Below, one piece after another: positions 30,101-51,814 of a DNA stretch of 64,000 nt. The first letter of the stretch is position 1; each line of letters starts with the position of its first letter. The DNA lies in NCBI GenBank assembly GCA_905178155.1, contig CAJINV010000013.1, forward strand, positions 1,864,281-1,928,280, read 5' to 3'. Source of the stretch: Amoebophrya sp. A120 (taxonomy: Eukaryota > Protista > Dinoflagellata). The translations under genes were made by a program, and so were the position numbers. The notes under the pieces are model-generated. The model did not search any database. It saw only the letters and a list, made by a program, of their open reading frames with translations, and had not been told where the DNA came from.

Positions 30101-32214
30101 CCGCCGCGCCTCCTTTGGGCTCTGCGGCCGCCGGACTTTTCCATGGAGCTGCTGGCCTCTCGGTTGCCTTAGCAGTTCTATGACAGAAAAACAGCCGCCG
30201 CAACAAAGAGAAACGCGGAACAGCTTCCGGAATCTGTTCGCACATAGAGAGGGAGGCGGCGCGAACGCCCTCCAGCTCTAGGCAAAAGCGACGCCGAGGC
30301 CTCTCAGCAAGTCAGCGCCTTCGCTTCCAGGCTTGCTCGCTTTCGTTTCCCCGCCTTCCCAGGTTTTCAGCCTTCCCGGCTTCTCCAGTTTGCTCAACCT
30401 TTCGAACCTCATTCGCCTTTTGAGCTTCTCAGCCCCCTCAGCCGCCCCAGTCTTTCTTACAGGCTTCCCTAGCCCTCCCAGTTCTCGCAGTCTGTTCAGT
30501 TTTTCCCGCCTTTTTCGTCTTTCCACTCTTTCCCGTCTCTATCTTCCTTGTCCCGAAGGTCTGGCCTCCCCGCCTCGTTGTGTTCCGCCGTTTGCCTCGT
30601 CGCTTCTGCGTGGTTTTCAAACTGTTCGCAGATAGAGAAACAGGCCCCGCAACAGACACAAGAAAACACGGGAGAAAATGGCCGCCGGAATCTGTTCGCA
30701 CATAGAGAAGGAGGCGGCGCGAACGCCCTCCCGATCTTTCTACGCAAAAGCTCCGGCCAAGCTTCCGAGAAAGTCCCGCCGCGGAAAATATGAGGCGCGC
30801 CATGATCTTCAAACGCGCATAGTTCTCAAAATAAACGCACAAGCAAAGATCCACAAAACGGCCCACGCCTGCGGAAAAATAAGATCGGCAGCCAGCGACT
30901 TGCCAAGTTAAATGCCGCTCCATAGCCAGAATTATCCGCAAGAGCTCCGCAAATATATAATTTGGCCAAGAGCAGAGCGGCCGCGTCTCGAATCTCATCG
31001 AAACAACCAGGACCCCAGTGGCTACCTGAAACTGACTAGCTGACACACCCGTACCCTTCCCCCCCGTCCTTTCCTTCTAGTTCTGCTTCCCCCCTCCCAG
31101 TGCTCTCGATTTCGCTTCGGGATAGAGATTCCTTCCCCCTGGCTAGTATTTTTAGGTTCAGAACATGCGTTTTGCGCGCTTTCTCTGATCAGGCCGTCCT
31201 ACGCCCCACCGCCACATCTTCTTCCCTACGATTCTACGTCCTGTTTCCGCCCCTGTCCGACACCAGCGTCGATAGGGTTTTGAGGGTCTTAGGGTTTAGG
31301 ATATTTGATTTACATTGCGGGCAGTTTTTTCTTTCATTTCGATGCAGTGCGACATTCTCACACACTCTCTGCAGCCTGGAACTGTAAGTGTACTCAAGAA
31401 AAATGTAGGAGTTATTTGTTTAAGCGGTTACGATTGCAGTGAGTTTCTCGCTGACCTTCTTGGCAACTCATCTAGTGCCGAAGAAGCTTGTGCCAAATTG
31501 TTCTTCCGAGCAGAAAAAGCTATCGATACAACCGAGTTGCTGCACGACCACAACGTGCGAAGTAGAAGTTCTAGAATTCATTTCCGACAAACTTTTTTTT
31601 CAGGACAAGGGCGACTGCCCGGACGCCCAAAAATTAATCGACTGGTCCAACGGCCTGCGTGACAGCATGCACGCCTGCATGGTTGCCGGCGCGGGAACCC
31701 GCGACCTGTGTGGCCCGAGCGGGCTCACAACGGAACAATTCATTGACGCAGTGGCGGAGCACATGAAGACCGGTGTGGTGCCGGGCGTCGCGGCCGCTGA
31801 GGCACCCGCAGCCGACCCGACCAGGGTGGAAGTGGTATCAATTTTATACAGAGCTTCTTTTTTTTTCTGAATTATTGTACATGTAGATGGATTGTAAAAA
31901 GAAGATGTGGGAGGTCCTCGTCGTGTACATGTACTTTTCGCTCGTTCGTGTGTTGCATTTTCGCGTGTGTCCATGTTTTTGATTCGGAATGAATTTGTGA
32001 TGCGAAATCGACAGTAAGAACAGCGTGTAAATGTAAATGTGTTAAAAACCTCCAAAAACTACAGCGCGACAGCAACGTGGATATGGACGTGGTAAAGAAG
32101 ATGTTCGACGAGTATGATGCCAATGCCGACGGAACCATCGACCTCGGCGAATTCGCCCGTATGCTGGTCAAACTCGGCGTCGCCCCCAAGAAAGCCGCAT
32201 CCAAGAGCATGTAA
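27149..32214 (+). CDS. IDH: Mitochondrial type II (homodimeric) isocitrate dehydrogenase, predicted NAD-preferring, with C-terminal EF-hand (542 aa)
   Basis: Exons 27149-27584, 27805-28000, 28228-28843, 31604-31834, 32065-32214 (GT-AG). Motifs GEEMT, KEPTITP, WGSPNGAMR, NYDGD, EASHGTV, SLNP, TRDL, TTEQFIDAV. R/S-rich transit-peptide-like N-terminus; last exon has DANADGTIDLGE. Confidence 0.92.
28861..31301. mobile_element. Repeat-rich 2.44-kb insertion in IDH intron 3 with ~16-bp target-site duplication
   Basis: Flanked by TATTTTATTTACATTG (28845-28860) and TATTTGATTTACATTG (31302-31317). Internal tandem duplication; telomere-like AGGGTCTTAGGGTTTAGG at the right end; no recognisable protein domain. 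Confidence 0.7.
29164..30342. repeat. Degenerate tandem duplication (period ~660-730 bp) partly built from ~18-19-bp TTAGCTRAAGCCGG units
   Basis: GCCGGTTTCTT(C/T)TTTAGCGGAAGCCGGTTTTTTAGCTGAAGCCG starts at 29164 and 29826. Both copies continue to AAGTCAGCGCCTTCGCTTCC; a partial third copy lies at ~30685-30731. Confidence 0.85.
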
Positions 32215-34326
32215 AGTGCGTCTTTTTGATGATGTTGAGATGTTACCCAAGAATGTGTGTTGAGAGGAGGCTGGCAGTGCTGCGAGACTGTGACGAGAGG
32301 AGAGACGCTGTAAAAAGTTTGAAAGTAGGCAGGAAAACTAGTAGTACCTTCGTACCTCATGATATCTTCTCACAACTAGCATACGCAACACGGCAGTTTC
32401 CACAGTAACTTTCCTTCTTTTTTTGTAATGTAAGACCATCTCCATATGACAATTTCTCTATAGCCCGTAAGAAGAGGGCTGCGCAAAAAGATATAACAAG
32501 AGACATACCAGCGGAGAAAATAAGCTTCCGGCAGATAAATGAGTCAGAGTCTGAGTCAATTGTTTACCACGTATCAATACCATCGGTACGTATAATGCTC
32601 GCATGAGAATTTCGCATAAAGACCAAGAGACGAGGAGGGATATAGTACCTCGCATAAAGGCTACTACGTGATGGAAAACATTTTTGAAATGCCCTTACGC
32701 AAAGTAGGCACGACCATATTCTAGAATACTAGTCGCACGCACATCCGTACTTCTAAAAGGACCTTACATTACACATCAACCTGCGACTTCAAACGAAACA
32801 CCCCCTGTGTCAATGGTGTCAACCTTCGGGCCTAGAGTGATGGAATAAAATACTCATTTCTCTTTTCTGACGGCAGGAAGCCGTGGCTGCTTGTGTCTGA
32901 GCGAAAGTGTTGCTCTTGTTCTTAACATCCCACCTGGAACTGAACGTTCTCCTCGGACATCTATCGTGTGTGACTCATGCAAACAAATTTTCAGGGACTA
33001 AGTGGCATGCGGTAACGTGACAGCCACTGGAGACAAGCGGAACCACGAGCGAGCGCGGGTCGGCGCGTCCAAATTGACAAAGCAGCTATATTTTCCTTCG
33101 TCGCATGGGCGCTTGCTTTTGTCGCCTCATCCTTGCTGCACCTACACGTTTCGTTCAATTTCTCGTCGATGCGACCTCGTCCTGTTTTGCCTAGAGTCAG
33201 ACGCATCTAGTACTGACTTTGCGTGCCCTCGTGTACTGGTCTCTATCCCGACGCACTTATTTTCCACCGCAAAAGCGAAAGCATTCATCGAAATACAAAT
33301 AAGGGAGTGCAGATGCTCAGTTAAGAGTGAAGACACAGCATTGATGGTTTCAATGTGCCATGAGAAGCAGCACTACGGGTCCGTGGAATGAACACAAACT
33401 GTATGATGAAGAACTAGAAGAAGAAGTGATTCTGAGGGACGGGAAAGAGCAAATAAACATAGGCTCCGTGAAAATTGAAAAAACCGTAACGCCACTTTGA
33501 ATGCATCGTACAAATGAAAGTTAAAAGTAAAGCAGACCGACGGCGCTGGCCTGGGCGAACTCTCATACTGCTCGTTTTGTTAGCATCAAGGTCAAGCGAA
33601 GGCGAACATAACAGCACGGCTCGATCAATTTCAATGTGATCTGCTCATACTCTACTAGTCCCGCTTGGAAGACGATCATAACTGCTATGTTAGTCCTTAC
33701 CTGCCTTTTTTTGTGCTTTTTATTTTGTGACTGAGATCTTGTTACGGTGATCTTGTTATGTTATCCTTTAACGACGGATGGGATGGCGTTGCTTCGCCTC
33801 CCGAACTAGGTCCTGTGTTATGCCTGTTCGTACCTCATGCTTGAGAGATTTTTTTGACTTTTCCGGGCAGCACAGGTTCAACTTGAAGCTTTGCTTTGCA
33901 CCTGGATTCGTGTGCTAATGTTTGCTGCAAATTGCGATTGCGAAAGAGAGTTTTTTTTGCATCATTGTAGGACTAACCACTTCCTTGATGAGCTGTGTTT
34001 ATTTGTAGTGTTTTTCTGGAAATTGGAAATCGAATCTAGATTTTGATTCTTGAAAGCTTTCGCGATGGACTAGCTCTCAGGATTCAAAAGCTGCATATGT
34101 CAGACAGTTACTCGCACACCATAAGATGCGAGCAAAGGGTTGATTTTGATTCTTGCCAAATGGAAAAAAAGTATGAATACCCCGCCACTGTAACCACAGT
34201 GAGGTTCTTCGCGAAGGCTAGGAGACGCGCTTCAGCTTTCGTCCGGCAAGCAGCTCAACTGAACATATCATGTAAAGCCACTGGCTCGTTTACTTTTCCC
34301 GTGCGGTCCCTTTTTCTTCTCCTCCA

Positions 34327-34819: not shown

Positions 34820-35359
34820 CAAGGTCTTGTTACTGAGAAGTTTCAGTTTGCTACATGGCGTACATTCGACGGGAAGATGAGCAAAATTCAAATGCTACAC
34901 CTACCCTGCAGAAGCCGAACGCAGCAGGCATGGTAGGAGACTGCCACTGCTTATCTAACATTCATGGCGTCATCCATACCGTGATTAATGTTAAAGTTAA
35001 TCTGTGCACATGACTGTAGAAATCCGTGCGAGACCGCTCATTCAGAGCAAATAAAAAAGCCCGCTGCCCAATGAGTGAGTGAGGTGTGGGTGAGTGAATA
35101 AGTGAGCCGCGGCGTGCTCCGCAAAGCTGTGCGCGCGTTGTTTCCCTAGCGTGAAAAGGTGGGCCCGCGCAGTGGTCTCGCTTACTTACCACTTGTGCAC
35201 TGCGCTTAAGACTGGTGTACAACTTTGGAGCGAGTGAGTGAGCTTGTTCAGTTTTGCTTCTCTCTTTTCCCTTCTACGAGGAGGAATTACACAAAGGTCT
35301 CTGGTGCGTGTTCAGGCATGATTGCAGACATTGGATTCAGTCAGCAAGCATCTACGAAA

Positions 35360-38300
35360 ATGACGCCGGTAGTAAATGAAGCAGGACCACTCCTTGTTCT
35401 CGTCGCAGCGTTACTAGTACCGCGCGCCGCTCTTGCTGCTGGCGCACTGGATTCGCGGTTATGCTACGCTGCAAGTTGCGGTTTTATGCTTGCAGAATTG
35501 ATTTTCGCGCCAAATAAAACAAGTTCTCGAAGTGTTGGCTTCGTATTTGCTCGACCGAGTACAACCACTCCTCCGGACGTCGAGAGGCAAGGAACTGGGC
35601 GCCAAGAGGACACAACCAGAACCACGCTTCGAAGCGCAGCCGACCAAGTAGAAGGACCACCGGACCGTAAAGAGTTCCTCACCGTTATACCAGACGAGGA
35701 GGAGGACCTTGGTTTTATTTCCAATAGCGGGGAGGTGGACGAAAGAAGAAGAACTGGAATTGAGAATGACCGTGAGCACCTCCTCGTAGCGAGTCGGCTT
35801 ATCCCACAGAAAAAAGCAAGCAGGTCATATTTGTATAATTCAAAAATAGATACACAGAAAGTGGAAAACGAATAATGAAAATCTGCGTTGCGTATCCTGA
35901 GCAGCATGCTACGGGGCGACAGATTCTTCTGTGTGTTTGTTTTTGCATTCCAAATTAATATTGCCTGCCTGCTTTTTTCAGTGTGATTCGGCTGACGAAG
36001 GAAAAACAGTTCCGAGCGAGAACATCAGAGCTTGCTCGTGGTGATGAAAGCCTTGTCGAAGTTGAACAGAAAGGAGCCTTGTCGGAACACGATGGCCTTT
36101 GGAACACGACGGACGACCTTTGGAACACGACGGACCTGGCCGCGGCGCACGGGGAAGATGACGTTCTCAACCAGCAGAATTTTGAGTCTGCTTCTGACCA
36201 TTCCACAGGACCCGTTTCGCGACGCGTGTTGGGCGAGAGGAAGAGCAGGAAGAATGACACGGACGTTGAGCAAGTAAATGGATCGGAAGGAACACAAAAC
36301 TATCGCTCGTCACCTAGTGAGCTGCTCGAAGTAGCAGCGCGAGCATCATCGTCGGCTAGAAGTGGTGCATCTACTCCAACGCGGTCGAGCGATGCGAATG
36401 AGAGCGACACGACAGGAAAAAATCAGCCGCAGCAGAAACAGTCGTCTCCGCAGCGGGGGCAGTTGGAACAAGAAGAGGAACAAGAAGAACACCCGCGAGC
36501 AGCGGATGCAGGTCACAGCAAACAGAAAATTGACACGTCACCGGAAGAACAAAAAACGGAAACGGGCGGTGAAAAAGCGTCCACTACGGTCGTCGGGGAG
36601 GCGGAGACATCAGTCGTGGCGGAGCTGCTGCAGCGTGTCAAGCAACTGGAGCGGCAGAGGGAAGAGGATAGAAATTCGTGGGGCGAGTCGGTCGACAAAA
36701 GGTTCCACATGGTGCGGGACGTCGGGTCGGCGGACGAGCAACTTTTGCAGCATATGCTGGCCGTGATACTGGCGATGAAGACGCACGAGTACATCCAGAC
36801 CGTCGCGTTTCTCAGCCTCGGTTTCGTTGCGGTACTGATTGCGATCTCCCTCCCCGCTGTGCGCGTTTTCTGCCCCCGGCGCCAAACCTCTAGCATGCTC
36901 CTTGCATCGTCATTCTCTGGCGGACCAGGAGAAGATCATCCGGAAGGGCGCCAGCTCCTCTTGCCGGCTAAAGCAGGACAAGATGGAGTAGCCGTCGTCG
37001 CGGCTAGCAGTGCAGATGAAACAGCATTTATTGGAGGAACTCCGCCGGAGACGATTTATCGTTTCTATCCGTTCGACTTCGTAGAGAAAGGGACGCTAAG
37101 CAGTGTTGTGCAATCCGCAGGCACGGACATCGGGCGAATCTTTGCGGTGTGCATCGTGGTAAACGAAGTACTGCTCCTTCTCTCCCAGTACCCTTTCCGG
37201 ATCTACGACACCTGGTGTATTGACAGTATAAGTAGCAGCGAAGCAATTTCGAGTCGGTCGTCCGAGGAACTTGAAGATATCAGGGACCCGTTTCCTTTTT
37301 TGACGCCGATGCACGAGAAGGTGGCGCGCACGCTCTGGCTCGTGCTTCCGCGCATTTGCTTGCTGATAACGGCCGCCGTTCCAGCTTCTACCTTCCAGCA
37401 AGTGCGGGCTTCTCTGTACAAGGCGTCTATTGCAAGGTCAGGGACCACACGGAGTAAAGACGCCCCGCCGGGGGCGCAGAAGCAGGCAGACGACCGCACT
37501 GGTGAGGGGCCAGCAGACGACGGCGCGGTGGGGAGGATGCAAAGACGAGCGCGTTCTGAGGATGCCGCTCGTCCGAACGATGAAACCAGAATTACAGATG
37601 ATGGCGATCATGTAAGGGGTAAAGAGTCGATCAACTTCATGCAAGTCCTTCACGCTCTGACTGCACCGACAGCGATAGTGACGCTTCTTCTGTTCGAGAC
37701 CATCCAGCTGAGCTTTGGCGAGCGCATCAATTTCCCTGCAGCAGTGATGGGCCTGGACGGCCGCGCGAGAGCTTCGGCGGCCGCGGCGAGGTGGGACGCT
37801 TTCGACGACATCACAAAGCTTCAACAATGTAATGAGTGGACTTCTGCGGCTCGCCTGCTGTTCTTCCCCCAAGTCTTTCGGTTCCGTGTGCTCTTTCTGG
37901 TAGCCGGCTGGGTGTGCTCGTTTGCCTTCATGGTTTTGCACCTATTACTGGAGTTCCAAGTCCCGCAGCGTTTCGGTTTCGTCAACGACGGGGAACAGAT
38001 TTTCTTCGACAGTCATGGGCAGTGGGTACGGGAAGCGCGTTCTCTCCTGCTTCCGAAACTGTCTTTTGTGTTGGAAATTGTAGCGTTTCTTCTGGTTCAG
38101 TTTCTCCCTTTTTTTCCGATTTTGGAGCGGATATTTGTTTCCCCCGGAGCACCACTTGGAACACGGGAACCACTTGGAGACACTGCATACCACGCTTGGA
38201 CGAAGAGTCCAGGACTTCCAGAATGGTTTGTGGGAGTGGAATATCCCAAGAAAACAAATGTTACAGTTTTAAACGGTTCGTGTTGTAATTTTAGCAACAT

Positions 38301-39243
38301 AAAGTTTCTCTATCTGATGACAGAAAAATTTGCAATGCAGTGCTGACGATTAGAAGGAAAAACAAGTATGAAATTAGGCTCCTGAGAAGTCGATCCGGCA
38401 TGCAGAGCTTGTCTGTCTTGCTTGGTCTGCAACACAATGTGTAGCTGTAGCAGTTGGTTCGTTGGGGTTGGATATGGAAGCTGGAACCCTGCGGGACTCT
38501 GTGGGACTACGTAGCCACGCATGACGGATGCCCTGCTATGGAGGGGAGGCGAGTGATCTTCCCGGCTACTGCTAGTTCTCTAAGAAAAAAACCCCATTTG
38601 TCAGCACGCGGCTTTACTTACCGGCACATGATGCAGCACAACTTCCTCTTTCTGTGATGCAAAACGCCTGCCACGAATCACTCGGTACTGCATGGAACTG
38701 CACGACTTGTGATCTTCAAAAAGAGTGTACGCAAATCTGCATGGCAGGCTTCGACTTTTCTTGAGACTAGCAGCAGTCCCAAACAAGAAAGCTACTCGCT
38801 TTATTACCTCTATACCTGCAGTCCCACACGGGCAGGTGTCGCAGAATTTGTGGCTGACCAGGCCGGCAGACGTTCAGCAGCATATCAAATGTAAAAGTGT
38901 CTGGGTCTGGAAGAATGCAACTTGTCATACTAAATCTGCAGCATGCAAAAATCTGTGTTGCGTGATTACCAAAAGTCGTCCAGTTTTGACCAAGTCGGGA
39001 GGGAGTTTCTCATGCAGGATAGGCATGAGAGAGATCGCACAGAATCTGTCATGCTAGGTCCTGCATTCCAGACCTCATGGGTCAACATGGAAAATATGCA
39101 TGACAAATCGTGCGCTCTTCCAGACCCAGACATTTTTGCATTTGATACAGCAGATCGACGCGCGATTTTGGACTAACGTGACGGAGTGGCGCTGCAACTT
39201 TTATTCTATCGACATTTTTGGCCTCTGCGTTCAGAGTAAGTAG
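35360..39243 (+). CDS. Multipass membrane protein with signal peptide, interrupted by four TAT...ATA element introns
   Basis: Exons 35360-35799, 35994-~38241, ~38480-38536, 38820-38882, 39153-39243. Removing element plus one TSD gives ASR-LTKEK, DGCP-AVPHG and DVQQ-QIDARFW...QSK*. Several TM helices. The junction at 38242 is ambiguous. Confidence 0.7.
35800..35988. mobile_element. TIR introner-like element (189 bp), TSD CGGCT
   Basis: TATCCCACAGAAAAAAGCAAGCAGG... pairs imperfectly with ...CCTGCCTGCTTTTTTCAGTGTGATT over ~60 nt. CGGCT at 35795-99 and 35989-93; excision fuses ORFs 35225 and 35983 in frame. Confidence 0.85.
38242..38474. mobile_element. TIR introner-like element (233 bp), TSD TGGAA
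   Basis: TATCC...GGATA ends with degenerate TIR; TGGAA at 38237-41 and 38475-79. Confidence 0.8.
38537..38814. mobile_element. TIR introner-like element (278 bp), TSD CCTGC, family B
   Basis: TATGGAGG...CCTCTATA; CCTGC at 38532-36 and 38815-19; precise excision is in frame; the 5' end resembles the element at 63829. Confidence 0.85.
38883..39147. mobile_element. MITE-like introner (265 bp), TSD CAGCA, family A copy 1
   Basis: ~35-bp TIR TATCAAATGTAAAAGTGTCTGGGTCTGGAAGA; CAGCA at 38878-82 and 39148-52; closely similar to the reverse complement of 44026-44290. Confidence 0.93.
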
Positions 39244-40710
39244 ATGACGTTGTCGTCGTCGTCGTCGTCCTCGTCCTCGTCCTCGTCGCGGGAGGATTAA
39301 CTTCGACCACCAAAACTACTGCGCATTTATTTGTCGCATCGATGGATCATATGAATTTTAACAAAAAGTAAAAGAACAAGAAGTCTACAGAACTTGAACT
39401 GCAACTGACACATACTACACTACTTTCTTCGTTGGACGGAAATAGTCGTGATAAGGAAGGAAACAGTTGCTGCACTGTTAGTTTCTATCTCAGTTTCTTT
39501 ATTTCTATTAGTATACTCGAACCTCGTACTCGTTTACGATCCGAAGGCAAAGTTAAGAAAAGGAAAAGAAGGGAGGTGGGGAAAGAAGTGTTGCACTATG
39601 GAATCTTTGATCAAGTCAAAGCGAGTAGCAACCATGCACAGAACATAAAGCAAGCATAATTTCCGATCATAAATGGCTACGTGAAAATGCAATGATCAAA
39701 AATCCATTACCATTTGGGCTTTAACGTGTTTATCTATCCTCCTGTGACAAAACGGCTATAGACAAGTTTTAATGAAATTAAAAATCTGGCCGTGAATCGT
39801 AGTAAAGTTAAGATGTAAAGATTTACCCCTTTGTGTTTGTTACACTTTGTCTCACAGTTCCTGTTAGAGCTTTGAAGCACTCTCTTGTGACATGACTTGA
39901 TAAGGAAAACGCTGTGGGCAAAGGCGCAGAGCCTGCTCGTGTCGCGCCCTAGATGCGAGCGATTAGCTGCTTAATCTGTTGAGGAAGTTGCAACTTCACC
40001 TTGTTGACGTGGTCTCCTGGGTATTGTGAACCGTCCTGATGTCGAGGCACTCGGTGCACTGTCCTGATGTCGCAGCAGTCGGAAAAACAGCAACAAAGCA
40101 GAGAAGTAATTCAGTCCCCCTTGTTTGGTGAACAAGGGAGACTTGTTGCCCTTGTCGAGTCTGCTAGCCTCGTTCTCGGCAGCTGGATCTGGCTACTGTT
40201 CGCTTGTGCTGAAACACCATGATGAGTAGTTGTCATTTTATATATACTTTTTCATTTTCAACAAGTAGTGGTTCTGTTCTCTGTGCTGTATCGAGGTCTT
40301 TTTTCCAGAACACGAACACCGCGATGGAAGATCAAGCAAATGCAAGAAAACAAGAGCGAGGATGTCGGTTAGTATCTAATATAGTAGATGAACAGCTGCA
40401 AGTCCAAACGCCGACACTAGGAAGTCAATTAATTTTAGACTCACCCTCACTCCAAGTGGGGAGGAGGACGAGTACAAGCAGTGCTGGATATTAACAATGG
40501 CGCTTGATTGATGATGAAGCTACGTCTTGCTCTTGGTGGTCGAGCAAGAGCACTTAGTAAGTAGTCAAAGCAATGCATCCATTGCAGTTTTATTTCTCCC
40601 GGTGTTCTTGTACCCTGCGCCGGCCGGCCGCCGGTGGTGGTCGAGCTCCTGCTCCTGCTGTTACTAGTCAATTGAGATTGACCAGCTATGGCTCCGGTTT
40701 GTTTGTAAAA

Positions 40711-41775
40711 ATGTCCAGGGCTGGCCTACTTTTCGCGGTGTTTGGCGCGGCAGGGCGGTTGTTTTTCTTTTTCCTCAGTCCGGGCGTTGCAAATGGATTA
40801 GCCCGCCCCGCGGACGAGGTGGATCTTCATTCGAATGCTCCCGCGAAGAGGAAGACCCACCGGAGGGAGATGATCCTGCTGGACGATTATAGCGGTGGGC
40901 CGCAGGGGCAAGAATTCACTGACCACGTCGACGAGGATACAAGTACGGAACCCGGACAGCTGCGTCATTTTTCAGTCGCAAACCAGGAGGGCTTGTTCAT
41001 CCAAAAAACGCAGTGGGCGCTCCCATCCCCCCGGAGTTTTTTTCGTCGTATGTGGAACAGGTTCCGGCGCCAGAAGCCGAGAAGTAGAAATAAGGGCGGT
41101 GCAGGGCTGTTGAAGGAGGAGGTCCAGAACGATCATCCAGCAGGCGACGCGTGTACAGCAGATCTAGATGGTGCAAAATCAAGTGTCGCACCGCGAAGAA
41201 AGTCACGAAGGCCAGAACCGCTGCGAACAGAACCAGTAGAACTACTTGATTATGAAATACCAGCGCGACGACCGATGCTGCTCGTAAACGCGACGCGCGC
41301 TCTCGATTTTTTTGATAGGGAACTCCCAGATGTCGTGGGAAATTCTGGATGGACGCCGAACCACAAGTCATTCACATTGGCCAAGCTGTTGAATCGTATT
41401 TACTTTGGAACACCCCGCAATCTCCTCGCTCTCGATCAGAATACAAATAATTACACATACCAGATGAATCTACGCACGATTAGCGGCCACGCGGATCTCC
41501 GGCCACGGGTGTATGGTCTCAATAAGGACAATTTTTTAGTGCGTGAGCTTCTAAATCAAAAGCAAAGCACCAAGTACAAAAACGAGTATGACAGCGTCGA
41601 GTCTGAGTCTGAACATCAAGAAGAAGACGGCGGGTGTGATAGCAAGCTTGTTGAAGACGAACCTGACTACCATAAGCCCCTGGTCGTTTTGGTCCACGAC
41701 CATGTAAAGTATGCATTTCAGCGACTTTCCACAGACCCGGAAGAATACATCATGAGAAGACTTTTAGAAGTGTAG
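40711..41775 (+). CDS. Secreted hypothetical protein
   Basis: ATG 40711 followed by hydrophobic signal-like MSRAGLLFAVFGAAGRLFFFFLSPGVANG; 354-aa open frame; no domain recognised. Confidence 0.6.
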   Translation: MSRAGLLFAVFGAAGRLFFFFLSPGVANGLARPADEVDLHSNAPAKRKTHRREMILLDDYSGGPQGQEFTDHVDEDTSTEPGQLRHFSVANQEGLFIQKTQWALPSPRSFFRRMWNRFRRQKPRSRNKGGAGLLKEEVQNDHPAGDACTADLDGAKSSVAPRRKSRRPEPLRTEPVELLDYEIPARRPMLLVNATRALDFFDRELPDVVGNSGWTPNHKSFTLAKLLNRIYFGTPRNLLALDQNTNNYTYQMNLRTISGHADLRPRVYGLNKDNFLVRELLNQKQSTKYKNEYDSVESESEHQEEDGGCDSKLVEDEPDYHKPLVVLVHDHVKYAFQRLSTDPEEYIMRRLLEV

Positions 41776-42937
41776 GTCGACTCGAAAACTCAATAGCGAG
41801 GAGGATTCATTGCAATGTCAATTTGTCCTCGGTACGGGAAGCGTTACGATGAAAAGATGAACGCAACAGTTGTGCATCAAAAGAATGCCAGGGAATACCT
41901 AGCAAGCTCTGTAACCATTTCTTATTTCATTTGTAGTGCGTCTCATAATCAGAGGCGAAATTGTCCACCGTTTTCACCGCAGCGAGGGGTCTTCATTGAA
42001 ATAGCACTGGAGAAAAGAGGTGACGGTGAGTAAACGCGTTCCCACCTGTACTAGAATTATGGTAAATCCAAACAGAAACGCCGATATTAAGTCAATTAGT
42101 CGCTTGGAGGCGTGCGAAGAGGACCAGAAAAAGAAAAAGACAACGGCTCCGTGATTTCCTCTTCCTCAGTGATTTCAGTGAATCGTCAGCCCAAGCAATA
42201 GACCCGCGATGCACAAGAAAAAGAACCTCGGTCCTGGCGGTTCTCTGTCGTGTGGAAAATGAAATGGAACAGCTGTTTTCGGTCCATTTTGCTGAACTTT
42301 ACGTGTCCTTTAAACAAGATTTGCATTTCAGGCCGCAATTTTTGTCAATGTCACTCCTGTGGTTATATTTCTTTGGTCGGTGTTTGAAAGGCAAAGGAGA
42401 AGTTCAAGTTCGGTTTTATGGAGGTCTTGTCATCGGAGTCCGATGAAATTCACACTTCTGTTGATGTTGCAATTTTTCGGTGTTCAGATATGTTTCGGTA
42501 ATTAATTCTGAAAGAACCCGTGATTTAATTATAGGTGGTTTGTTAGAAGCGACTGTGGCAAAGTCAAAGATTAAGATATTCATTCTCATTTTGTTTTTGA
42601 AAGTTATGTTGGAATAACGCTAACGTAACTAAATAGATACCTGCATCGCAACATCTTTAGCTACTACAAATGACATTTCTCGCATTGCATGACAGTGCTG
42701 TCCAGGTCTCACGGTTTAAACAACCCTAGTACTTTACTGCGAGCTACATACCGACGTGGTCCCGTCATCTTTGTATTTTTAGGTGATTTGATCTCCTTCT
42801 TCGTTCGCGAAGATCGTGCGAAAAGGATTCCGCCTGGAACGGTGTGCAATTGCGCTGCCTTTGCCCCCCCCCTGGGACGAGTCCTCGTGGTGGCCTCAGC
42901 TTGTAAAAAACTCATCATCATCATCTGGTAAATAATC

Positions 42938-45900
42938 ATGGCGGCCGTGCAAGTGAAAACCAAGCAGCCAGCGGGGGATCCTACCTACCCGCTACTGGTT
43001 TCCGAGTCGACGCGCCAGATTCTGGAGCTGACTCTGAACGTCTACAAGGGCGTGTCGCAGGGGAAGGGCGGCATCTGGCTGACCGACTACTTCTATCGCC
43101 GCATGCTGTCTTCGGAACCCAGTTTGCGCAACGTGTTCAATCAGGCAAACCAGTCGGGGTTTAAGCAGCCGATGAAGCTGTACGACTCCTTCCTGATTGC
43201 CGCGGAATGCGCCATTGCGAAGAAGCCGTACCCGGCGGACAAGATCGATACCATCTCTCAGCGGCACGTTGGCCTCATGGTTACGCCGGCCATGTACGCG
43301 ATTGTGAAAACCCACCTGGTGCAGACGATCATCGAAACGCTGGAGGCCGGGGGGGATCAGCGAGTGTACGCTGCCTGGGCCGAACTGTACGACGTGTTCG
43401 CCGCACACCTGATGACTTTGGAGAAAAAGCTGTACGAAGACAACAAAAATGCGGGCTGGAAGGTGGACACAGGCGACAACATGGCAAATAACGGCGAGAA
43501 CAATAAAGCCAAGGATCAGAAGCGCCTATTTCAACTGGTGAAGAAGGAGAAGCTGTCGCCGCTGGTGACCCAGTACTTCTTCTCTCCTATCAAAGTGAAA
43601 GAAGCCCCCACCCCATATCGGAAACGGAAGATGCGCGAATTTGTGATGCTGTATTTGAGTACACAAATCAACTTGTATTGCTAGAAGGCCAGGAGACGAA
43701 GCTGCGGCCTAAATTGCAGGTAATCTGTCATGCTGTTTCCCACTTCCAGTTGCCTCCTGTCATCCTGGACCTGCAAGGCTTTCCCACGCTAGACAGCACT
43801 ACAGTCCGCATCTTTTGCCTTCTAGCATCACAAGCTGATTTGTGGCCACAAATCTGCATCACAGATTTCCGCTTTGATATGGGGAGGGGGCATTTTTCAT
43901 TGTAATATCTCCGCAAGACGGAAAGCCGCTGCTGGCGGTGAAACCGGGCAAGTACCTGACGCTCTGGATGCAGGTGGGTTCCTACACGCAGCCGCGCCAC
44001 TACACCATTGTTCCGACCAAGGAAGTATCAAATGTAAAAATGTCTGGGTCTGGAAGAATGCGCGATTTGTCATGCAGCTTTTCCATGTTGACCCTTGAAG
44101 CCTGGAATGCAGGAACTAGCATGACAGATTCTGTGCGATCTCTCTCATGCCTGTCCTGCGTGAGAAACTCCCACACGACTTGGTCAAAACTGGACGACTT
44201 TTGGTAATCATGCAACACAGGTCTTTGCATGCTGCAGATTTAGCATGACAAGTTGCATTCTTCCAGACCCAGACGTTTTTACATTTGATAGGAAGAGGTA
44301 GAGGACTCCTGCTACTCCATCTGCGTGAAGCGCGACGGCGCGGTCTCGACGGGCTTGGAGCTGGTCGGCCTCCGCGAGTGCCTGCCGCTCAGCCCGCCGC
44401 AGGGGGCCTTTAACCTGCAGAAGTACCTCCGCGCGTGCCAGCGAGCCATTAACTACGACACGTCCACCGGATCTGGCGGCCCGTACTTGCTGCTGCTCAG
44501 CGCTGGCACGGGGATCACGGCAATGCTCTCGCTCCTCGCGCGCACCGTATCATGAGGAAAACTGAGGATCCCCTTTCCACATATTGAAATTGGAACACAT
44601 ACACGGGGATGAGAATTTGTGTATGCTGATTTTTTGTTGTGTAGTACGCAAATTATGCCTTATTTCTCTTGCATACTTGGGAAGGGGAAGCAAGAGCGAA
44701 AGGTAGCACTTGGCAGGCCATCTGTGACGCGTTTTAGCCTACAGCAGCAACGTCTATGATGCTGAAGCGCTAGACTTCTAGAAACCCGAACAGCTGCTCT
44801 AGCATACGCCTCCACTTTGTTCCTGCAAGACAACAAGGCTGATTCCTGGGGCCACGAATCAATCTGCATCCTCACCAATTTTCCTTTTGAGTATCCGAGG
44901 AAGGAGGGGGGGTTTTTCCTCACGATACGACGAATTTCCGCAGTTTGCATCGGGAAAGAAGTTAAAAATCGCCTGGTGTCACGGTTGCCGCAACGGTCAG
45001 GAGCAGTTGTTTCGGGACAAGGTCGCGGACATCATCCAAAAAAAAACGGAGGAAAACGAGACGCTCGAGTATCAATGTGGAAATATACTAGTGTCCCGAG
45101 GACCCCAGGACGGTGGAGAGCATTAGCCTGTAATGCACTTACTTATGCATAGAATTAAAATTAAAAAGTGGGTTCCGTGACGAGGAGGACCGAGGACGTG
45201 AGATAAGTGCCCTTTGTCGTAAAAGAAAGGAAAAATGCGACGCATTTTGTTCTTTCACGATCTGGGGATGCTGCTTCTTCAGCAGCATGACAGACGTCGC
45301 TTGATCACACAAGTAGCTTTCGCTATTCTACAACAGAGGGTCTTGGTTTTCGAGGAACCAAAGAAATGCATGCATGTGGCGCTCGGAAACCGAGCCTCGG
45401 CCCACGAGGGAGCCGGTGCGCGCTCTGGCAAAAAAGAGCGCAAATGTTTTCTTCGTGATTTTTGCGGAGCTTTGTATCTATGGTATATATTGGCTTGATT
45501 CGTAGATGATAAGTATTTCCCCTCCGTATTTCTGGGGCACCACCAGGGGCGCGAATTTCCATCTTTCTCGTGGATATCGAGATCCAGCAATATGTATGGT
45601 ATTCGCGGCCCCGGGACGACGACCCCACCACCGACGGGAAGCTTGTGACCGTGAAAACCGGGCACATGGACCTGCAGTCGTGTGCGGAGCTGTCCAGGTT
45701 TCTTGGCGGGCGGACCACGGCGGCCATCGGCGGCACGTACGCTTACATGTGCGGCCCCGGGGGCTGGCTGTCCAAGCAAAGGCAGGATTTGACCGCCATG
45801 TCGAAGCGGATTTGCTTGCCCGAGAATGTCGTTTACGAGTCCTACGGAGAAGAGCTCACCGGCGAGGCGGACCCGATGATGCAAGCCGCGCTGTTATCCC

Positions 45901-46470
45901 CAGTAAAGAAAAAGCAGTTGTGTAGTTGCACCCAGCACGTTGTAGTCGTCAAGATGAGAGCAGTGACGTTTAGTATGCGTACATACAAGTCATAATCAAG
46001 ATGAAGCTTTGGCTACTGTGCATGAAATCATTTTTGCGATGTCCGCAGCGTAAAAATCAACGGAATTCTTGTGATTTTCTAGCTCCGAGCAGTCACGATG
46101 TGTAAGTACCACCCAGAAGATCACTTTTTGAAGATGCTGTACCTGTACTGAGTATGACAAAGTCCGCCCCCATCGAGGACCACGACGAGAAAACTGTTGC
46201 CATACTAGCGAGCAGTCGCATGAGACACTTGCTTCTGGTGCGCTATAATACTGAATACTTGCAGTTACATGCAAGATGTGCTGGTAGCTGAGAAAACTCT
46301 ATTATTGTGCTGGATGCTACTACTACTCACTACGTTTTTGAAAGCAGGCATAGCTGCAGAGCAACCAACCCGGAAACGACGGACGGGAATTTCCGCTGCA
46401 GATTCAGACTCAGGCAGGGCCGCTGGATTTCTGTTTGGCGGGTATCCAGAAGTTCCTGGCTTGCAAGTGA
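42938..46470 (+). CDS. hmp: Flavohaemoglobin (NO dioxygenase; globin + FAD + NAD domains), ~527 aa
   Basis: Exons 42938-43587, 43913-44024, 44292-44546, 44929-45069, 45582-45893, 46357-46470 (last exon less certain). Globin FYRRM...VFNQANQ...RHVGL...AWAELY; FAD domain PGKYLTLW, PRHYTI, YSICVKR; NAD domain SAGTGITAMLS, WCHGCRNG, YMCGP, YESYG. Confidence 0.9.
43588..43907. mobile_element. TIR introner-like element (320 bp), TSD TCTCC
   Basis: TATCAAAGTGAAAGAAGCCCCCACCCCATATC pairs with GATATGGGGAGGGGGCATTTTTCATTGTAATA; TCTCC at 43583-87 and 43908-12; excision gives FFSP-QDGKP. Confidence 0.9.
44026..44290. mobile_element. MITE-like introner (265 bp), TSD GGAAG, family A copy 2 (opposite orientation)
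   Basis: Near-perfect ~36-bp TIR; GGAAG at 44021-25 and 44291-95; creates GT(44025)...AG(44291). Confidence 0.93.
44548..44927. mobile_element. TIR introner-like element (380 bp), degenerate TSD
   Basis: TATCATGAGGAAAA...TTTTCCTCACGATA; flanks CACCG and CGACG; removal joins LLART to DEFPQ in frame. Confidence 0.8.
45070..45576. mobile_element. TIR introner-like element (507 bp), TSD TCGAG
   Basis: TATC...GATA ends with decayed TIR; TCGAG at 45065-69 and 45577-81; excision gives ETLE-IQQYVW. Confidence 0.85.
45895..46352. mobile_element. Decayed TIR introner-like element (458 bp), TSD GCTGT/GCTGC
   Basis: TAT...ATA ends; subterminal GTAGTTGCACCCAGCAC pairs with GTGCTGGATGCTACTAC; excision extends the frame to a stop at 46470. 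Confidence 0.65.
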
Positions 46471-47860
46471 ACAAGTCCGCACAACGAGGAAGAGCTCAGG
46501 ACTCTCCCGTTCCTGCTGTTCAACGCGGCACAGCTCTGTACCCCCATCATCTCTGTAAAGGTAACCACAAATTGAAAGGTGACTACTAGTGGGACATGGA
46601 TGCCATTTGTCTTCCAGTTCTTAGCCGCACGAGACACGGTGATTTAGTATCCTCCACTCCAGGTTTTTTGTTATTTTTATTTATCCAAAATCTTAATCTT
46701 GTGTCTTCGAGCATGTATTGATTCCCTCTTGATTTCATCTCAACACGCCCTAAGTCTAGGGTAGTTCTAGTTTGTAGAGTATTTTACTACCACCTTCATG
46801 CTCTCCTGCATCGGACAAGCCCGAAGAAAAAAAAAATGTTTAAGTGAGGTCTGGTAAATCCATCGAAAAGCAAATGTGCCAACCCTCGCGCGACGACCAC
46901 ATGAATCCATTTGAGGCTTTTTCTAGAAACATCAGCGAATAGGAATAACAGGAATATAGCTTCATTGGATGTCGCACCAAATCCATTCATCTTGCATTTC
47001 CGAATCGATCTTCGATCTTCCGGCAGCTGTGCAGACACATCTGAATCTGTGTTGTCGCATTGAAGAACCGAAAAAGAATCTGTTGACTTTTTTGCAGAGA
47101 AGAAAATGTTTTTTCCGGAGAAAGAAAAAAGACAAAGACGATTTCTCGTCATGCGAAATTGCAAGACAACATACATGAACATTTTCTGAAACTACCGAAG
47201 ACAGTCGTTTGGGAAAAAATCGACAAACGGGCCAAGTTCTATTTGATCTGCAGTATTACAGTCATTTCTTGCATAGTCGGTCTAACACTTAATATCGTGT
47301 GGATCACCATGATCTGAGAGAACCTTACCTTCGCAAATGGTGATCCGGCTATTGTTTTCACAGGTCTTCCTCAAGAAATTGCATGAGCTGCTTCGTATAA
47401 TGTTGCAAAAAATTCTCGTACAACTACAAGCAGAGATGATGAGAATGAAACTCAGACGAGGTCTCATAGGATAGTTCCATGTTTATTTGATCGTGATCCC
47501 CCTGATCAGAAATCTTAGAGACCCTCCAAGCGAGTGGGACAAATCAAGATCTTCGCGCTGCAAAAGTTGAAGTCGTGATGTGAAGATGGTGCGTTCAATC
47601 TGTTGAAGAATCTTTGAAGATGATACGCAAATAAACAGAACCATTATCATGAGACCGATCACAGTGAAGGATTGATGTCGAACTGCTTATGTTTTATGCG
47701 GATTCATTTTCCATTTCCGTGCTGTGTCATCACAATTGTAAAATGATGTTGATTAATGGCCGCGACATAATGTTTCCCCGAATGCCTTCTATTTAAGTAA
47801 AAAGTAATATGGCTTTTCTTCGTGTAGTTAATTTGAACGACAGAACGCGAGCATAAAAAG

Positions 47861-50800
47861 ATGGCGAAAAACAAAAAAAGCAAAGCCCAGGCCGGCAACA
47901 GACACCCCGTCCGGAAGGAGGGAGGTCTTCACGCAGGCAGTTCCAAGACCATGGCCAAGCACGGGAATTCTGTGCAGAAAAAAGGCAAAGGCGGGGCGAA
48001 AGGCCGGGGAAAAGCGCCATCTTCAGACCACCCGAGCAGGCGAAAACCCGCACCGGGGCCGCAGGTGAAGGTGACTAGTACTGGCAACTTTTCATCTAGA
48101 AATAAAGGAAAGGGAAAAATTGCCCACATGCGTCAACTGCGCAGCTCTACTACTACTTCAAGCAGGAACCAGCTGGCCCTGTACGAGCAAGCCGGCGGGG
48201 TTGTGCAGCGTGTGTTCGTGGAGAAAAAATCCGGACTGAAGAACGCACTCTACAACAGCCGTCCGAAGCCAGGTTCAACATCTTTCTTATCGGGGACCAC
48301 GACTTCGGCTTCGAACAAAGTGACCGTGAAAAGTGGAGAAGTCAGGTGTTCCACGACTGCGACGGACGAGGAAGCAGACCCCGAGGACCCTGCGAGCTCC
48401 GCACTGCCCGCCCTGTGCGCGATTGTCTCGAAAACCTTGAAGCTCGCCCCGTTGCTGTTGCCGCTCTTGCAGCAAAACCACGCAGCGGTGTTGGACCAAA
48501 TTGCCGAAGTGAGTGCGGAGCAAGAACAGCGTCGAGGGGGTTCTTCTAGTACTTCCTCGGGTCGTTGTAACAGCACGACCGCCGCGCAGCCAAAGCACCT
48601 CGGTTTTGTCCTCGTCATGGTCACGCAGCTGCTGTACTGCCGCGAGCAGGGGAAAAGCTTCAAGGTCGGTGGCAGGAAGGTTACCCCGTTGAAGCGGATA
48701 GTTGAGGAAGTGCGGAACGGCTTGATTGCATCTACTTGTTCATCCGGAAAGACAAAGATGAACAAAAATGAAGCCAATGTTGATGCTCCTCTACTTGCAG
48801 AGCACCGTCGTAGCAAACATGGCTGTGAAAATGAGAAGATGAACGCACCAGGAACGCACGGCGACGAACGCCGTAATACTATCTCGGAAAAGCAATTGCA
48901 GGCCATTTTGCTCGACCATAATTCTCCTTCCCACGACGGCGCTGACCATAAGAACACGACCGTGAGTGGAGAACGACCAGAAGAAGACGGAGCAGGCAAG
49001 CAGTACTGCTACTTCAGAATCAATCCAAGAATCGTTTTGCCGCTCGCTGTGCAGGCGAGCCATGAGCGACCAGCGGAAGCGGTGGAAGTGGAAGGGCGCC
49101 AGGTAGAAGAACGAGAGCAAAATGCAAACAAGAGTCCGGGCGGCCGTGGTAAGGAAGTACAGGAACTTGTTGTAGAACCCCAAGCAAGAAATTGTACTCC
49201 ATCTTCTAAAACCTCCACACCGCTGCAACCTCCGTCGACAAATTGTTTCACTTCCGAAAACATCAATATACTGACGGAAATCGACAAGTGGCTAGATCCA
49301 GTGACTCAGTCATTTCTGCACGAGAAAATGGAAAGTTTGAAAAAACAGGGAAATAAACCTACGAAGAAAAAAATCGTAGAAAATACTTCCGAAGTAGATG
49401 CCGGTTCAACAACTAGTACGACTTCCAGTTGCGGTGCAAGTACCAGTAGTACCGCCGCCGCGCTCGCCCGCGTCTTCGAGAAGGACTCCGTGGTGCCTTT
49501 GTGCTATCGGATGGAGAAACGCAACTACGCGACCTACCTGCACCCGCTGGCGGACGCCGGAATCGTCATAGTGCAGGACCGCAGCAGCCAGTTCTCGGCT
49601 TTGGCCGCTGTTGACACGCTGCTTGGCGGGGGAGGGAATAATTCTACTTTGCCCAAAGAAGTTGACGATGATCATGTTGACGACAGAAATGATGGAGCTG
49701 CCGTTCCGTGTAGACGTCGTCGAGGGAGTTCTTCATCTTTTTCTAGTTCCTTTTCCTCTGGGCTAAAAATCCTGGACGCCTGCTCCGCTCCCGGGTCGAA
49801 GACCTCGCACGTCATCCATCTGCTGCAGTTGTACCGAGCATATCATCACGACAAAAGGATGCTAGTTTCGCCCGGTCGTTCCTGCGCTTCTGGCTCGTCC
49901 TCCATCCGAAGTAAAAAACGGGCGGATGAAGTAGAACAAACAGAAACACCAACACCCATCATGGACACGGTCATCGCTTTGGAGCGGGACCCGAAGCGGT
50001 TTCGAATATTGTTGACGCGACTGGCGACCGTGTGTGACCTCTTTGCAGTAGATGAAGGGCAAGAACTACTACGACCGGGAGGAGAAAAAAGTTGTTCTCC
50101 CTTGCAGCCCGCGGAAATCGGCGAAAAATACAAGGACTTTTTTGCAACGGCGAAGAAGTCTTCAGTTCTGTCATCGCAGAACAGAATTATTACCGACTAC
50201 GGGCAAGAGAAGGTTGACAAATTGACAGACCACGGGATAAAAAACCCGCCCGCGGAAAATAAAAGAAAAGATCATACAGCAACCTCTTGGGCGGGAAGTG
50301 ATCCTATGGAGTTGAAATTCCACATTCCTATACCGCAGCGCGGCGCACCAGAGCAAGACAAAGACTTAACAAAAGCGAAACACAGCATTTTGGTCGTTCT
50401 GAAATTAGGCGACTTTTTGCAGCTGCGGAGGAATGAGGAAACCGCGCAACGAGGACCAGCGGAAAGAAATAGCACGTTCTTGTCCCACGACGACCATCTC
50501 GACGCTATTCTCCTGGATCCGTCTTGCAGTGGGTCTGGTTTGCAAGAGCACAACCAGGAAAAAAACCGCTACGAAATTACAAAGAATACTTCCGACCGTA
50601 TGAAGATGTTGAGTAAAAACAATTCGACGTCCACACTAGAAGAAGTACTGCCAGAGCAGGACCAGTTTTCGGCCCTGGACCCGTCGGCACGCGCCCGTGT
50701 GGAAAGCCTGGCCGAGTTCCAGACCCGGATGTTGCAGCACGCGCTCGGGTTGATAGCAGGAGGAGCTTCGTTGAAATGTTTGCACGACCGCAGTAGTCAG

Positions 50801-51814
50801 GTAAACAAAAATGTTAAGCGAAGTAGACCCTCCTACGTGTTCTATTCGACGTGTTCCGTGTACGATCGCGAAAACGAGCGCGTGGTGATAGACGGGGTAG
50901 AAAGGGCGGAACGGGAAGTTGTAGTGGAGACAGAGCAGCTCCAGATCATGCAGCGTGGTCGTGAAGGTGAAGCTCTAGTAGGTTCTTTATTTCCACCGGC
51001 TCAAGTTGTAGAACTACATCTGCTCCAGCAGCAGAACTTGTTCGAAGTGCAAGCCGCGTTGCCAGCCTCGATGCGGGCAGTGTGGAAAGAGGAGACCAGT
51101 TTACGGAAGGTCAAAGCCCATTTTTCGGGATCAGGTGGTGCACTTAATAACCGACTTGATTGCAGCACCGACGAGATGAACGGTGGAGAAAATGAAAACG
51201 ATGTTGCGATGAAGGAGTTGTCAGAAGAAGGAGATCCTCTTCATCTTCACGAAGTAGATGCGGTTGACAAAGATCATGACCAGGGAGGTCGTCGCCGTGG
51301 TGAAGAGTCTCCTCGTCTCCCACGACCAGCAGACGCAGATCCTCAACTCGCGTCCAACGTGAATCACCTCCGGATGCTGTGCGCGCATTCCTATCCGGAA
51401 GAGCACCAGTGCCGCGGCTTCTTTTTGGCGAAGGTGGCTTTATCATCTGTGGATCCTTGCCGCGCGGCGCGTGGAGGATCAGAACCAAAAGACGGAACCT
51501 CAACAACGCAGCCGCAGGCAGATGAGGTAATGAAGAATGACTACCGTGACCACACAGAAACAGATCAACATGGCCGAAAAACGGCGAGTAGTAGTCCATC
51601 TTCACGACATGAGCCTGTTGAACAAGTAGAGACGCATCAAGCGGGACGTCGAGAGGCAGCTTCGAAAAAGAGACAGACGGCTAGCGGAAACGTTGGAATC
51701 TCCTCGACGGAAGAGGATTTTGCTCCTCAACAAACCTCTCAATACGTCTCGGTGAAGAAGGCGCGAAGGCTCATGGCAGAGTTGCGCAGCCAACTCCACG
51801 CTTGTAAAAAATGA
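47861..51814 (+). CDS. NSUN5: NSUN5/Rcm1-like large-subunit rRNA cytosine-C5 methyltransferase, greatly expanded (1317 aa, intronless)
   Basis: RsmB/NOL1 motifs in order: VQDRSS, ILDACSAPGSKT, ILLDPSCSGSG, LAEFQ..ML.HAL, YSTCSV...ENE.VV, GFFLA. DPSCSGSG is typical of the NSUN5 subfamily. Confidence 0.85.
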   Translation: MAKNKKSKAQAGNRHPVRKEGGLHAGSSKTMAKHGNSVQKKGKGGAKGRGKAPSSDHPSRRKPAPGPQVKVTSTGNFSSRNKGKGKIAHMRQLRSSTTTSSRNQLALYEQAGGVVQRVFVEKKSGLKNALYNSRPKPGSTSFLSGTTTSASNKVTVKSGEVRCSTTATDEEADPEDPASSALPALCAIVSKTLKLAPLLLPLLQQNHAAVLDQIAEVSAEQEQRRGGSSSTSSGRCNSTTAAQPKHLGFVLVMVTQLLYCREQGKSFKVGGRKVTPLKRIVEEVRNGLIASTCSSGKTKMNKNEANVDAPLLAEHRRSKHGCENEKMNAPGTHGDERRNTISEKQLQAILLDHNSPSHDGADHKNTTVSGERPEEDGAGKQYCYFRINPRIVLPLAVQASHERPAEAVEVEGRQVEEREQNANKSPGGRGKEVQELVVEPQARNCTPSSKTSTPLQPPSTNCFTSENINILTEIDKWLDPVTQSFLHEKMESLKKQGNKPTKKKIVENTSEVDAGSTTSTTSSCGASTSSTAAALARVFEKDSVVPLCYRMEKRNYATYLHPLADAGIVIVQDRSSQFSALAAVDTLLGGGGNNSTLPKEVDDDHVDDRNDGAAVPCRRRRGSSSSFSSSFSSGLKILDACSAPGSKTSHVIHLLQLYRAYHHDKRMLVSPGRSCASGSSSIRSKKRADEVEQTETPTPIMDTVIALERDPKRFRILLTRLATVCDLFAVDEGQELLRPGGEKSCSPLQPAEIGEKYKDFFATAKKSSVLSSQNRIITDYGQEKVDKLTDHGIKNPPAENKRKDHTATSWAGSDPMELKFHIPIPQRGAPEQDKDLTKAKHSILVVLKLGDFLQLRRNEETAQRGPAERNSTFLSHDDHLDAILLDPSCSGSGLQEHNQEKNRYEITKNTSDRMKMLSKNNSTSTLEEVLPEQDQFSALDPSARARVESLAEFQTRMLQHALGLIAGGASLKCLHDRSSQVNKNVKRSRPSYVFYSTCSVYDRENERVVIDGVERAEREVVVETEQLQIMQRGREGEALVGSLFPPAQVVELHLLQQQNLFEVQAALPASMRAVWKEETSLRKVKAHFSGSGGALNNRLDCSTDEMNGGENENDVAMKELSEEGDPLHLHEVDAVDKDHDQGGRRRGEESPRLPRPADADPQLASNVNHLRMLCAHSYPEEHQCRGFFLAKVALSSVDPCRAARGGSEPKDGTSTTQPQADEVMKNDYRDHTETDQHGRKTASSSPSSRHEPVEQVETHQAGRREAASKKRQTASGNVGISSTEEDFAPQQTSQYVSVKKARRLMAELRSQLHACKK

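Follow-up and report, generated by a model that had tools for sequence, protein, structure and literature searches.

Nine inverted-repeat introners in two neighbouring genes of Amoebophrya sp. A120 and their probable exact removal from RNA

A stretch of 64,000 nt from the genome of Amoebophrya sp. A120 (assembly GCA_905178155.1, contig CAJINV010000013.1, positions 1,864,281 to 1,928,280; this whole stretch is called the window) contains nine short inserts, E1 to E9, that begin with TAT and end with ATA or a close variant and are associated with two genes on the plus strand. The product of gene 1 (35318..38524) has hydrophobic stretches, is of unknown family and measures 924 amino acids (aa) once E1 and E2 are removed. 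Gene 2 (42938..46470) encodes a flavohaemoglobin-like protein of 525 aa once E5–E9 are removed. An earlier description made from the letters alone (the sequence-only reading) had listed nine TAT-ended elements with 5-bp duplications, two of them imperfect, and with E1 ending in ATT, and all of these were present. It had also proposed that the elements act as introns, and all nine were skipped together with one duplication copy in contigs that are probably RNA.

In and behind gene 1, E1 occupies 35800-35988 (189 bp; 35795..35993 with its duplications, CGGCT/CGGCT) and has the right end ATT in place of ATA, and E2 occupies 38242-38474 (233 bp; 38237..38479 with duplications; TGGAA on both sides). 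E3 (38537-38814, 278 bp; 38532..38819 with duplications; CCTGC on both sides) and E4 (38883-39147, 265 bp; 38878..39152; CAGCA on both sides) lie past the current stop codon, E3 in a paralogue-like frame, and E4 belongs to a high-copy family. Gene 2 holds E5 (43588-43907, 320 bp; 43583..43912; TCTCC on both sides), a member of a multi-copy family with an inverted repeat of ~100 bp, and E6 (44026-44290, 265 bp; 44021..44295; GGAAG on both sides), also of a high-copy family. These are followed by E7 (44548-44927, 380 bp; 44543..44932; imperfect duplication, CACCG/CGACG), E8 (45070-45576, 507 bp; 45065..45581; TCGAG on both sides), which has decayed ends and single-copy depth, and E9 (45895-46352, 458 bp; 45890..46357; imperfect duplication, GCTGT/GCTGC). 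The elements span 189-507 bp, all nine are flanked by 5-bp direct repeats (exact in 7/9), and eight of the nine have TA..TA termini.

Chance pairing of such ends was assessed over 35001-47000 with 200 dinucleotide shuffles. A strict filter (TAT..ATA, 100-600 bp apart, a perfect 5-bp direct repeat and no fewer than 9/14 inverted-repeat matches) found five pairs, compared with 0.01 on average and never more than 1 in the shuffles. With at least 7/14 matches, seven pairs were found versus 0.15 in shuffles (maximum 2), and the same looser filter found only two pairs in the remaining 52 kb of the window. TAT elements are concentrated in 35-47 kb and sparse elsewhere in the window, where a weak 746-bp TAT..ATA candidate with an exact GTTTG repeat lies at 8595-9340. 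The inverted repeats start with TAT, seven variable letters and an A run, with 6-14 of 14 positions matching; they are clear in E1, E2 and E4-E7 and decayed in E3, E8 and E9. Within E7-E9, a search for nested elements gave weak candidates only.

The internal sequences had been described as mostly unrelated. This is correct for seven elements, which showed no mutual match at E 0.01, but not for E4 and E6, which are 92% identical in opposite orientation and so form one family. Summed depth in a DNA-like sequencing run (X5), which gives a rank order of the bins and not a copy number, was 113922 for the E4 bin, 92633 for E6 and 21270 for E5, compared with ~28 for unique DNA; the E8 and E9 bins were at the single-copy level (29 and 28). 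Contigs of X5 contained very many near-identical copies of E4/E6 and of E5, and the earlier proposal that the families differ in age agrees with this contrast to E8 and E9. In these contigs, often only 23-40 letters separate the end of one E4/E6-family copy from the start of the next, which suggests very short exons elsewhere in the genome.

Removal from transcripts was investigated in assembled contigs of four runs from one study, X1-X3 from one sample and X4 from a second, whose RNA status is an automated guess. These runs behave as RNA, because X1 and X4 skip ordinary GT-AG introns. Both skip the canonical intron 31835-32064, X4 also skips 32211-32994, and both leave some intergenic stretches uncovered. 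An X1 contig runs through the 5' part of 32211-32994 to 32827, whereas X4 skips it, a possible case of alternative processing between samples. Across 35001-47300, the X1-X4 contigs contained nine joints, one per element, and no further joints; nor were any back-joints listed, although contigs of such libraries would be unlikely to reveal circles. The skipped lengths for E1 to E9 were 194, 238, 283, 270, 325, 270, 385, 512 and 463 nt, which is the element plus 5 in 9/9. The E1 joint (35793-35988) was seen in X2, X3 and X4, as were those of E3 and E4, and the E2 joint was seen in X3 and X4. Gene 1 joints came from X4, plus X2 and X3 at low depth; the gene 2 joints (E5-E9) all came from X1-X3. 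The joints of E7 (44545-44931, with two ambiguous letters) and E9 (four ambiguous letters) each occurred in a single joined form. Spliced contigs were ~6-24 times deeper than element-containing ones, specifically 185 versus 12.7 at E9 (X1), 149 versus 6.1 at E8 (X2) and, in X4, 21.3 versus 3.6 at E2 and 2.7 at E3. A raw RNA run (X8) placed two reads on 20 kb and was uninformative.

The DNA-like run X5 (flat depth ~28) keeps the elements. Its contigs run through or into them, for example gap-free over 44263-50000 across E7-E9, and among the joints listed for the contigs of this one DNA sample none bridged E5 or E9. The assembly may have been built from X5. The sequence-only reading had held that transcripts retaining the elements, or using nearby GT-AG sites, would speak against introns, and the contigs pointed to neither. 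We consider it very probable that the elements are removed in vivo, on RNA, with exactly one duplication copy, and that the pre-insertion sequence is restored in any phase.

Element removal is required for a complete flavohaemoglobin, since without it the gene 2 product stops at 248 aa. Transcript contigs of gene 2 extend over 42694-47179. Its product contains a Pfam Globin domain, and the five relatives that were scanned all contained Globin, FAD_binding_6 and NAD_binding_1. The relatives came from a HMMER search (a word-index protein search gave none), and the 83 of 150 that were 380-460 aa long formed a profile. Against this profile the spliced product scored 265 bits over positions 10-388 and the unspliced one 139 bits, in line with the earlier claim that flavohaemoglobin motifs are restored. 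With a single element retained, the score was 139 (E5), 184 (E6), 224 (E7) or 245 bits (E8). Retention of E9 left it unchanged because E9 sits after the conserved part.

The gene 1 transcript contig extends over 35313-40046. Within the long exon, residues 250-760 match at 100% identity the annotated protein P0151, which has the source name Amoebophrya sp. A120; a paralogue (P0152) shares 35% identity, and there was no Pfam match to gene 1. Public gene models of the A120 genome miss some of these introns, as gene 1 shows: its annotated protein, P0151, continues into E2, which is contradicted by the transcript contigs. The spliced open reading frame (ORF) of gene 1 stops at 38522-38524, with E3 and E4 downstream. 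A likely ancestral C-terminal frame (38130..39243, plus strand) is entered upstream of E2 and is open across E2, E3 and E4 after their exact removal, to a stop at 39241-39243. The P0152 tail matches this frame with 47% identity over 49 aa (tblastn, E 1e-12). A frameshift near 38130-38190 separates the main ORF from the paralogue-like tail; it is present in both an X4 contig and X5, which match the window there without gaps. It is located among short tandem repeats.

Because the P0152-like frame stays open across all three elements to 39243, it was likely coding sequence that received E2, E3 and E4, and the C-terminus of gene 1 has changed later through a separate frameshift. Insertion of E3 and E4 into a 3' untranslated region had also been considered and was dropped once the paralogue revealed the old coding frame. 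The statement that every element lies in coding sequence thus stands for E1, E2 and E5-E9, and needs amending for E3 and E4, which are now past the stop though likely inserted in a coding frame. The frame had been reported as restored in eight cases. Exact removal holds, and the one failure is due to the separate frameshift near 38130-38190 and not to the removal of E2.

The rules followed by the family were investigated in a related genome. A search of metagenome contigs with the E4/E6 end pattern gave at least 132 stretches; all 79 loci listed belonged to one assembly, and 130 loci (0.53 Mb) were analysed. The same pattern gave no matches in viral contigs. Among 125 distinct family copies, picked by their ends with no filter on the duplication, 108 had an exact 5-bp repeat, 11 had one mismatch, three had two and three had three, and none of the 125 had an exact repeat of 4 or 6 bp. 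The duplications of these copies showed no clear base preference. Across 295 elements of all families, removal of the element plus 5 nt left a coding-like open frame in 210, versus 71 for plus 4 and 72 for plus 6. Orientation relative to the host frame was evenly divided (30 with, 31 against, 4 unclear), in a count that left out 60 of the 125 size-matched elements as outside the family. These features, namely short length, inverted ends, a duplication of fixed length and 125 dispersed copies of one family with differing duplications, fit miniature inverted-repeat transposable elements (MITEs).

In the same loci, an RPB1-type gene (locus L033) is interrupted by two elements, locus L060 holds a copy of E5 with 94% identity, and E1 and E2 also have relatives. 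The window's own genes were in none of the loci, and no empty allele was visible there. Longer elements with E4/E6-type ends and exact 5-bp duplications (481-972 bp) were found at L033 5001-5972, L060 765-1461, L023 3862-4492 and L022 571-1051. They contained no ORF longer than 140 aa and are possibly nested or internally expanded copies.

None of the nine elements has GT-AG borders in the observed register, nor in any allowed register (E6 can be read as GA-AG), so that 'usually' lacking a GT-AG pair, as first worded, was right about the absence and too weak. A frame-keeping GT-AG pair is available in E6 (267 nt) and another pair in E8 (513 nt), and both were unused in the contigs. Exact duplications conceal the cut, and only the imperfect ones of E7 and E9 inform the register. 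At E7, three to five letters of the left duplication copy were kept in the contigs. At E9, zero to four left-copy letters were kept and the fifth was taken from the right copy; the fifth letter of the left copy would create a stop. Under a register common to all elements, cleavage on the 5' side would fall 1 or 2 nt ahead of TAT.

The end profile of 210 elements of the related genome shows a TAT-N7-AAA motif, with no excess of G before TAT (43/179). Codon usage around imperfect duplications gave no signal for which copy is exonic. A cut 1 nt before TAT would give an N-T-A-T start, which fits the T at the second position of all nine commonest non-canonical A120 end pairs given in Table S4 of PMC7789003, and also the donor at 31835. 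The donor of that canonical intron (31835-32064) reads GTATC, a G plus the element start letters, and the intron has no matching 3' inverted repeat. Predicted end pairing was 0.65-0.99 in six elements and lower in E2 (0.25), E8 (0.06) and E9 (0.22), and eight of the nine fold more stably than shuffled sequences (z -2.1 to -10). A long hairpin does not look necessary for removal, because E2, E8 and E9 are mostly skipped despite their low predicted pairing.

The nine inserts belong to the already published introner system of A120, because an annotated A120 protein matches gene 1 at 100% identity over the searched region, and they form a clean worked example of it. In the accessible text of Farhat et al. 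2021 (PMC7789003), A120 introners have inverted repeats that open with TAT and continue with seven variable letters and three or more A, direct repeats of 3-5 nt (given as 5 bp in the Fig. S19 legend), non-canonical ends and a mean length of ~240 nt; they occur as families and singletons, and the position of the intron border is marked unknown. The present elements share the organism, the TAT-N7-AAA ends, the border repeats and the lack of GT-AG, and we found no difference in kind from that text. They differ from it in the strictly 5-bp repeat, the exact net loss and a cut narrowed by two introns, and either the 5-bp rule or the register may already be apparent from Figs S19-S25 of that paper. 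Gozashti et al. 2025 (PMC12130899), in the portion accessible, describe A120 family 38 as having a '5-bp TSD, TA/TA Termini' and similarity to a Copia-like transposase. There, many A120 families are terminal inverted repeat elements of 250-320 bp, with automated duplication lengths of 2-6 bp (40 of 58 A120 rows). The likeness of our elements to these families, family 38 in particular, is drawn from their descriptions. The sequence-only reading had pointed to reports of inverted-repeat introners in Amoebophrya, and these two papers describe the same system, including the TAT start with 5-bp repeats and the TA/TA termini.

Three further systems were compared through the accessible parts of their descriptions. 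IS3EU/GingerRoot elements (PMC10045372) have TA..TA termini, as here, integrase-like DDE enzymes and usually a 6-bp duplication, in contrast to 108/125 at 5 bp and 0/125 at 6 bp in the related genome, and they are not described as introns in that account. Introns of Fritillaria borealis (reviewed in PMC11282704) are likewise MITE-derived, with inverted ends, duplications and no GT-AG; they are reported as spliceosomal and have dominant AG-AC and AG-AT ends, whereas here the host letters fix no end dinucleotide. The nonconventional introns of euglenids (PMC11282704) share inverted ends, duplication-like repeats, the lack of GT-AG and an unknown mechanism, and differ in their end code (CAG/CTG) and in release as circles. 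From canonical U2 introns, the elements are set apart by GT (or GC)...AG borders in 0/9. The elements of A25 begin with TTA.

A Pfam search for a transposase found none in 14 stretches of the window and none in the 0.53 Mb of related loci, where the 90 longest out of 125 ORFs were scanned. Around ten element ends with no partner nearby, no element containing an ORF came to light. A 4.2-kb candidate in locus L037 was rejected, as it resembles a stretch of host exon flanked by two short copies. According to the accessible text of Farhat et al. (PMC7789003), no transposase was found in A120 there either. Searches of the open literature, with subscription papers outside their coverage, showed no paper resolving the A120 cut site or transposase, which agrees with the earlier statement that both the transposase and the excision mechanism are unresolved.

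The reading we favour, with moderate confidence, is that the inserts are the published A120 introners, that an integrase-type transposase likely encoded elsewhere inserts them, and that a modified spliceosome probably removes them. Insertion would follow the end rule TAT-N7-AAA with a staggered 5-bp cut and preference for neither target nor orientation, and a DDE transposase would act in trans on the short, non-coding elements. An IS3EU/GingerRoot-like enzyme is suggested by the TA..TA ends, and we see this assignment as equally likely to be right or wrong. On removal, the element and 5 nt are lost net, as the contigs show in 9/9, and the sequence of the insertion site is restored. The distance to the element ends may position the cut, with no part played by GT or AG, a point on which we are evenly divided. 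With a cut 1 nt before TAT, the intron would start N-U-A-U, which is donor-like apart from a missing G at +1, and close to its 3' end the inverted repeat's A run would be read as a U tract. Each end would carry both signals, so that either orientation would work. The simplest remover would be the resident spliceosome reading these symmetric inverted-repeat signals, which is about an even bet; nearly all spliceosomal proteins are reported from A120, with U1 not detected (PMC7789003, accessible text).

Several points weigh against this account. The RNA label of X1-X4 is guessed, all four runs belong to a single study, joints in gene 2 were obtained from one sample, and rare forms are masked in contigs. 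Complementary DNA (cDNA) does not exclude reverse transcriptase jumping between direct repeats at a hairpin. The register is derived from two introns under the assumption that it is shared, and the T at the second position in Table S4 may be an effect of the read aligner. A fixed register is further challenged by mismatches between the duplication copies in the related genome, of which 21/31 are synonymous, more than the 34-49% predicted for one freely varying copy (p<=0.025, in a small, post hoc test with inferred frames); this hints that both copies are under coding constraint. Finally, no transposase was found, and the duplication is 5 bp long compared with the usual 6 bp of IS3EU/GingerRoot.

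The best-surviving rival is structure-guided removal of the elements from RNA outside the spliceosome, in which the paired ends would form a stem, a nuclease would cut on either side within the duplicated 5-mer, with cuts possibly sliding and coupled, and a ligase would join the exons. It fits the blindness to orientation and to end dinucleotides, the exact net loss at every joint, the undetected U1, the folding of 8/9 elements beyond shuffles and, through a sliding cut, the excess of synonymous mismatches (21/31). A comparable route has been proposed for the nonconventional introns of euglenids, which have inverted ends and are released as circles (PMC11282704, accessible text). However, E8, E9 and E2 have low predicted pairing and yet their spliced contigs are ~6-24 times deeper, E7 and E9 have one joined form each, and a near-complete spliceosome serves GT-AG introns in the same window. 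We therefore rate this route as rather unlikely. The broader proposal that A120 uses a route outside the normal spliceosome, blind to dinucleotides and strand and with coupled, possibly sliding cuts, plus an undescribed 5-bp IS3EU/GingerRoot-like integrase, appears unlikely to us.

Next in rank is an artefact in the tube, in which reverse transcriptase would jump hairpins between direct repeats and the genes would be broken, or spliced otherwise, in the cell. The signature of this artefact is a hairpin, a short direct repeat and exact loss of one repeat copy, and the evidence here is probably all from cDNA. Against it, the skipped form dominates even for poorly pairing elements, the flavohaemoglobin would end at 248 aa and the RPB1-type gene of the related genome would be broken, the plus-5 rule keeps the frame in 210/295, and the duplication mismatches look coding-constrained, so that an artefact seems very improbable. 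Ranked last, and scarcely credible, is excision from DNA in some life stage, with the skipped contigs as rearranged DNA. Ends of TA type and the accurate loss of a single repeat copy resemble the internal eliminated sequences of ciliates, and the guessed RNA label gives this reading room, but ordinary GT-AG introns are skipped in X1 and X4 too, where some intergenic stretches lack coverage, and X5 keeps the elements, unbroken through E7-E9 and with neither E5 nor E9 bridged among the joints listed.

To the known introner system, this locus adds the exact net rule, the orientation blindness, the strict 5-bp duplication and a means of mapping the cut. Each copy with one or two duplication mismatches (14/125, ~11%) reveals its cut position from ordinary RNA reads. 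As ~30,000 such introns are reported, a genome-wide cut map could tell a fixed spliceosomal register, as in the favoured reading, apart from sliding cuts. That removal is exact and blind to orientation also accounts for the low cost at which a transposon can fill coding sequence.

Elsewhere in the window, an uninterrupted ORF of 2480 aa with weak WD40-type matches lies at 18786-26228, and another of 1325 aa, with an RsmB/F methyltransferase match, lies at 47837-51814. The stretch 30001-31334 is multi-copy (X5 depth 214-254 versus ~30) and is not among the tested TAT elements.

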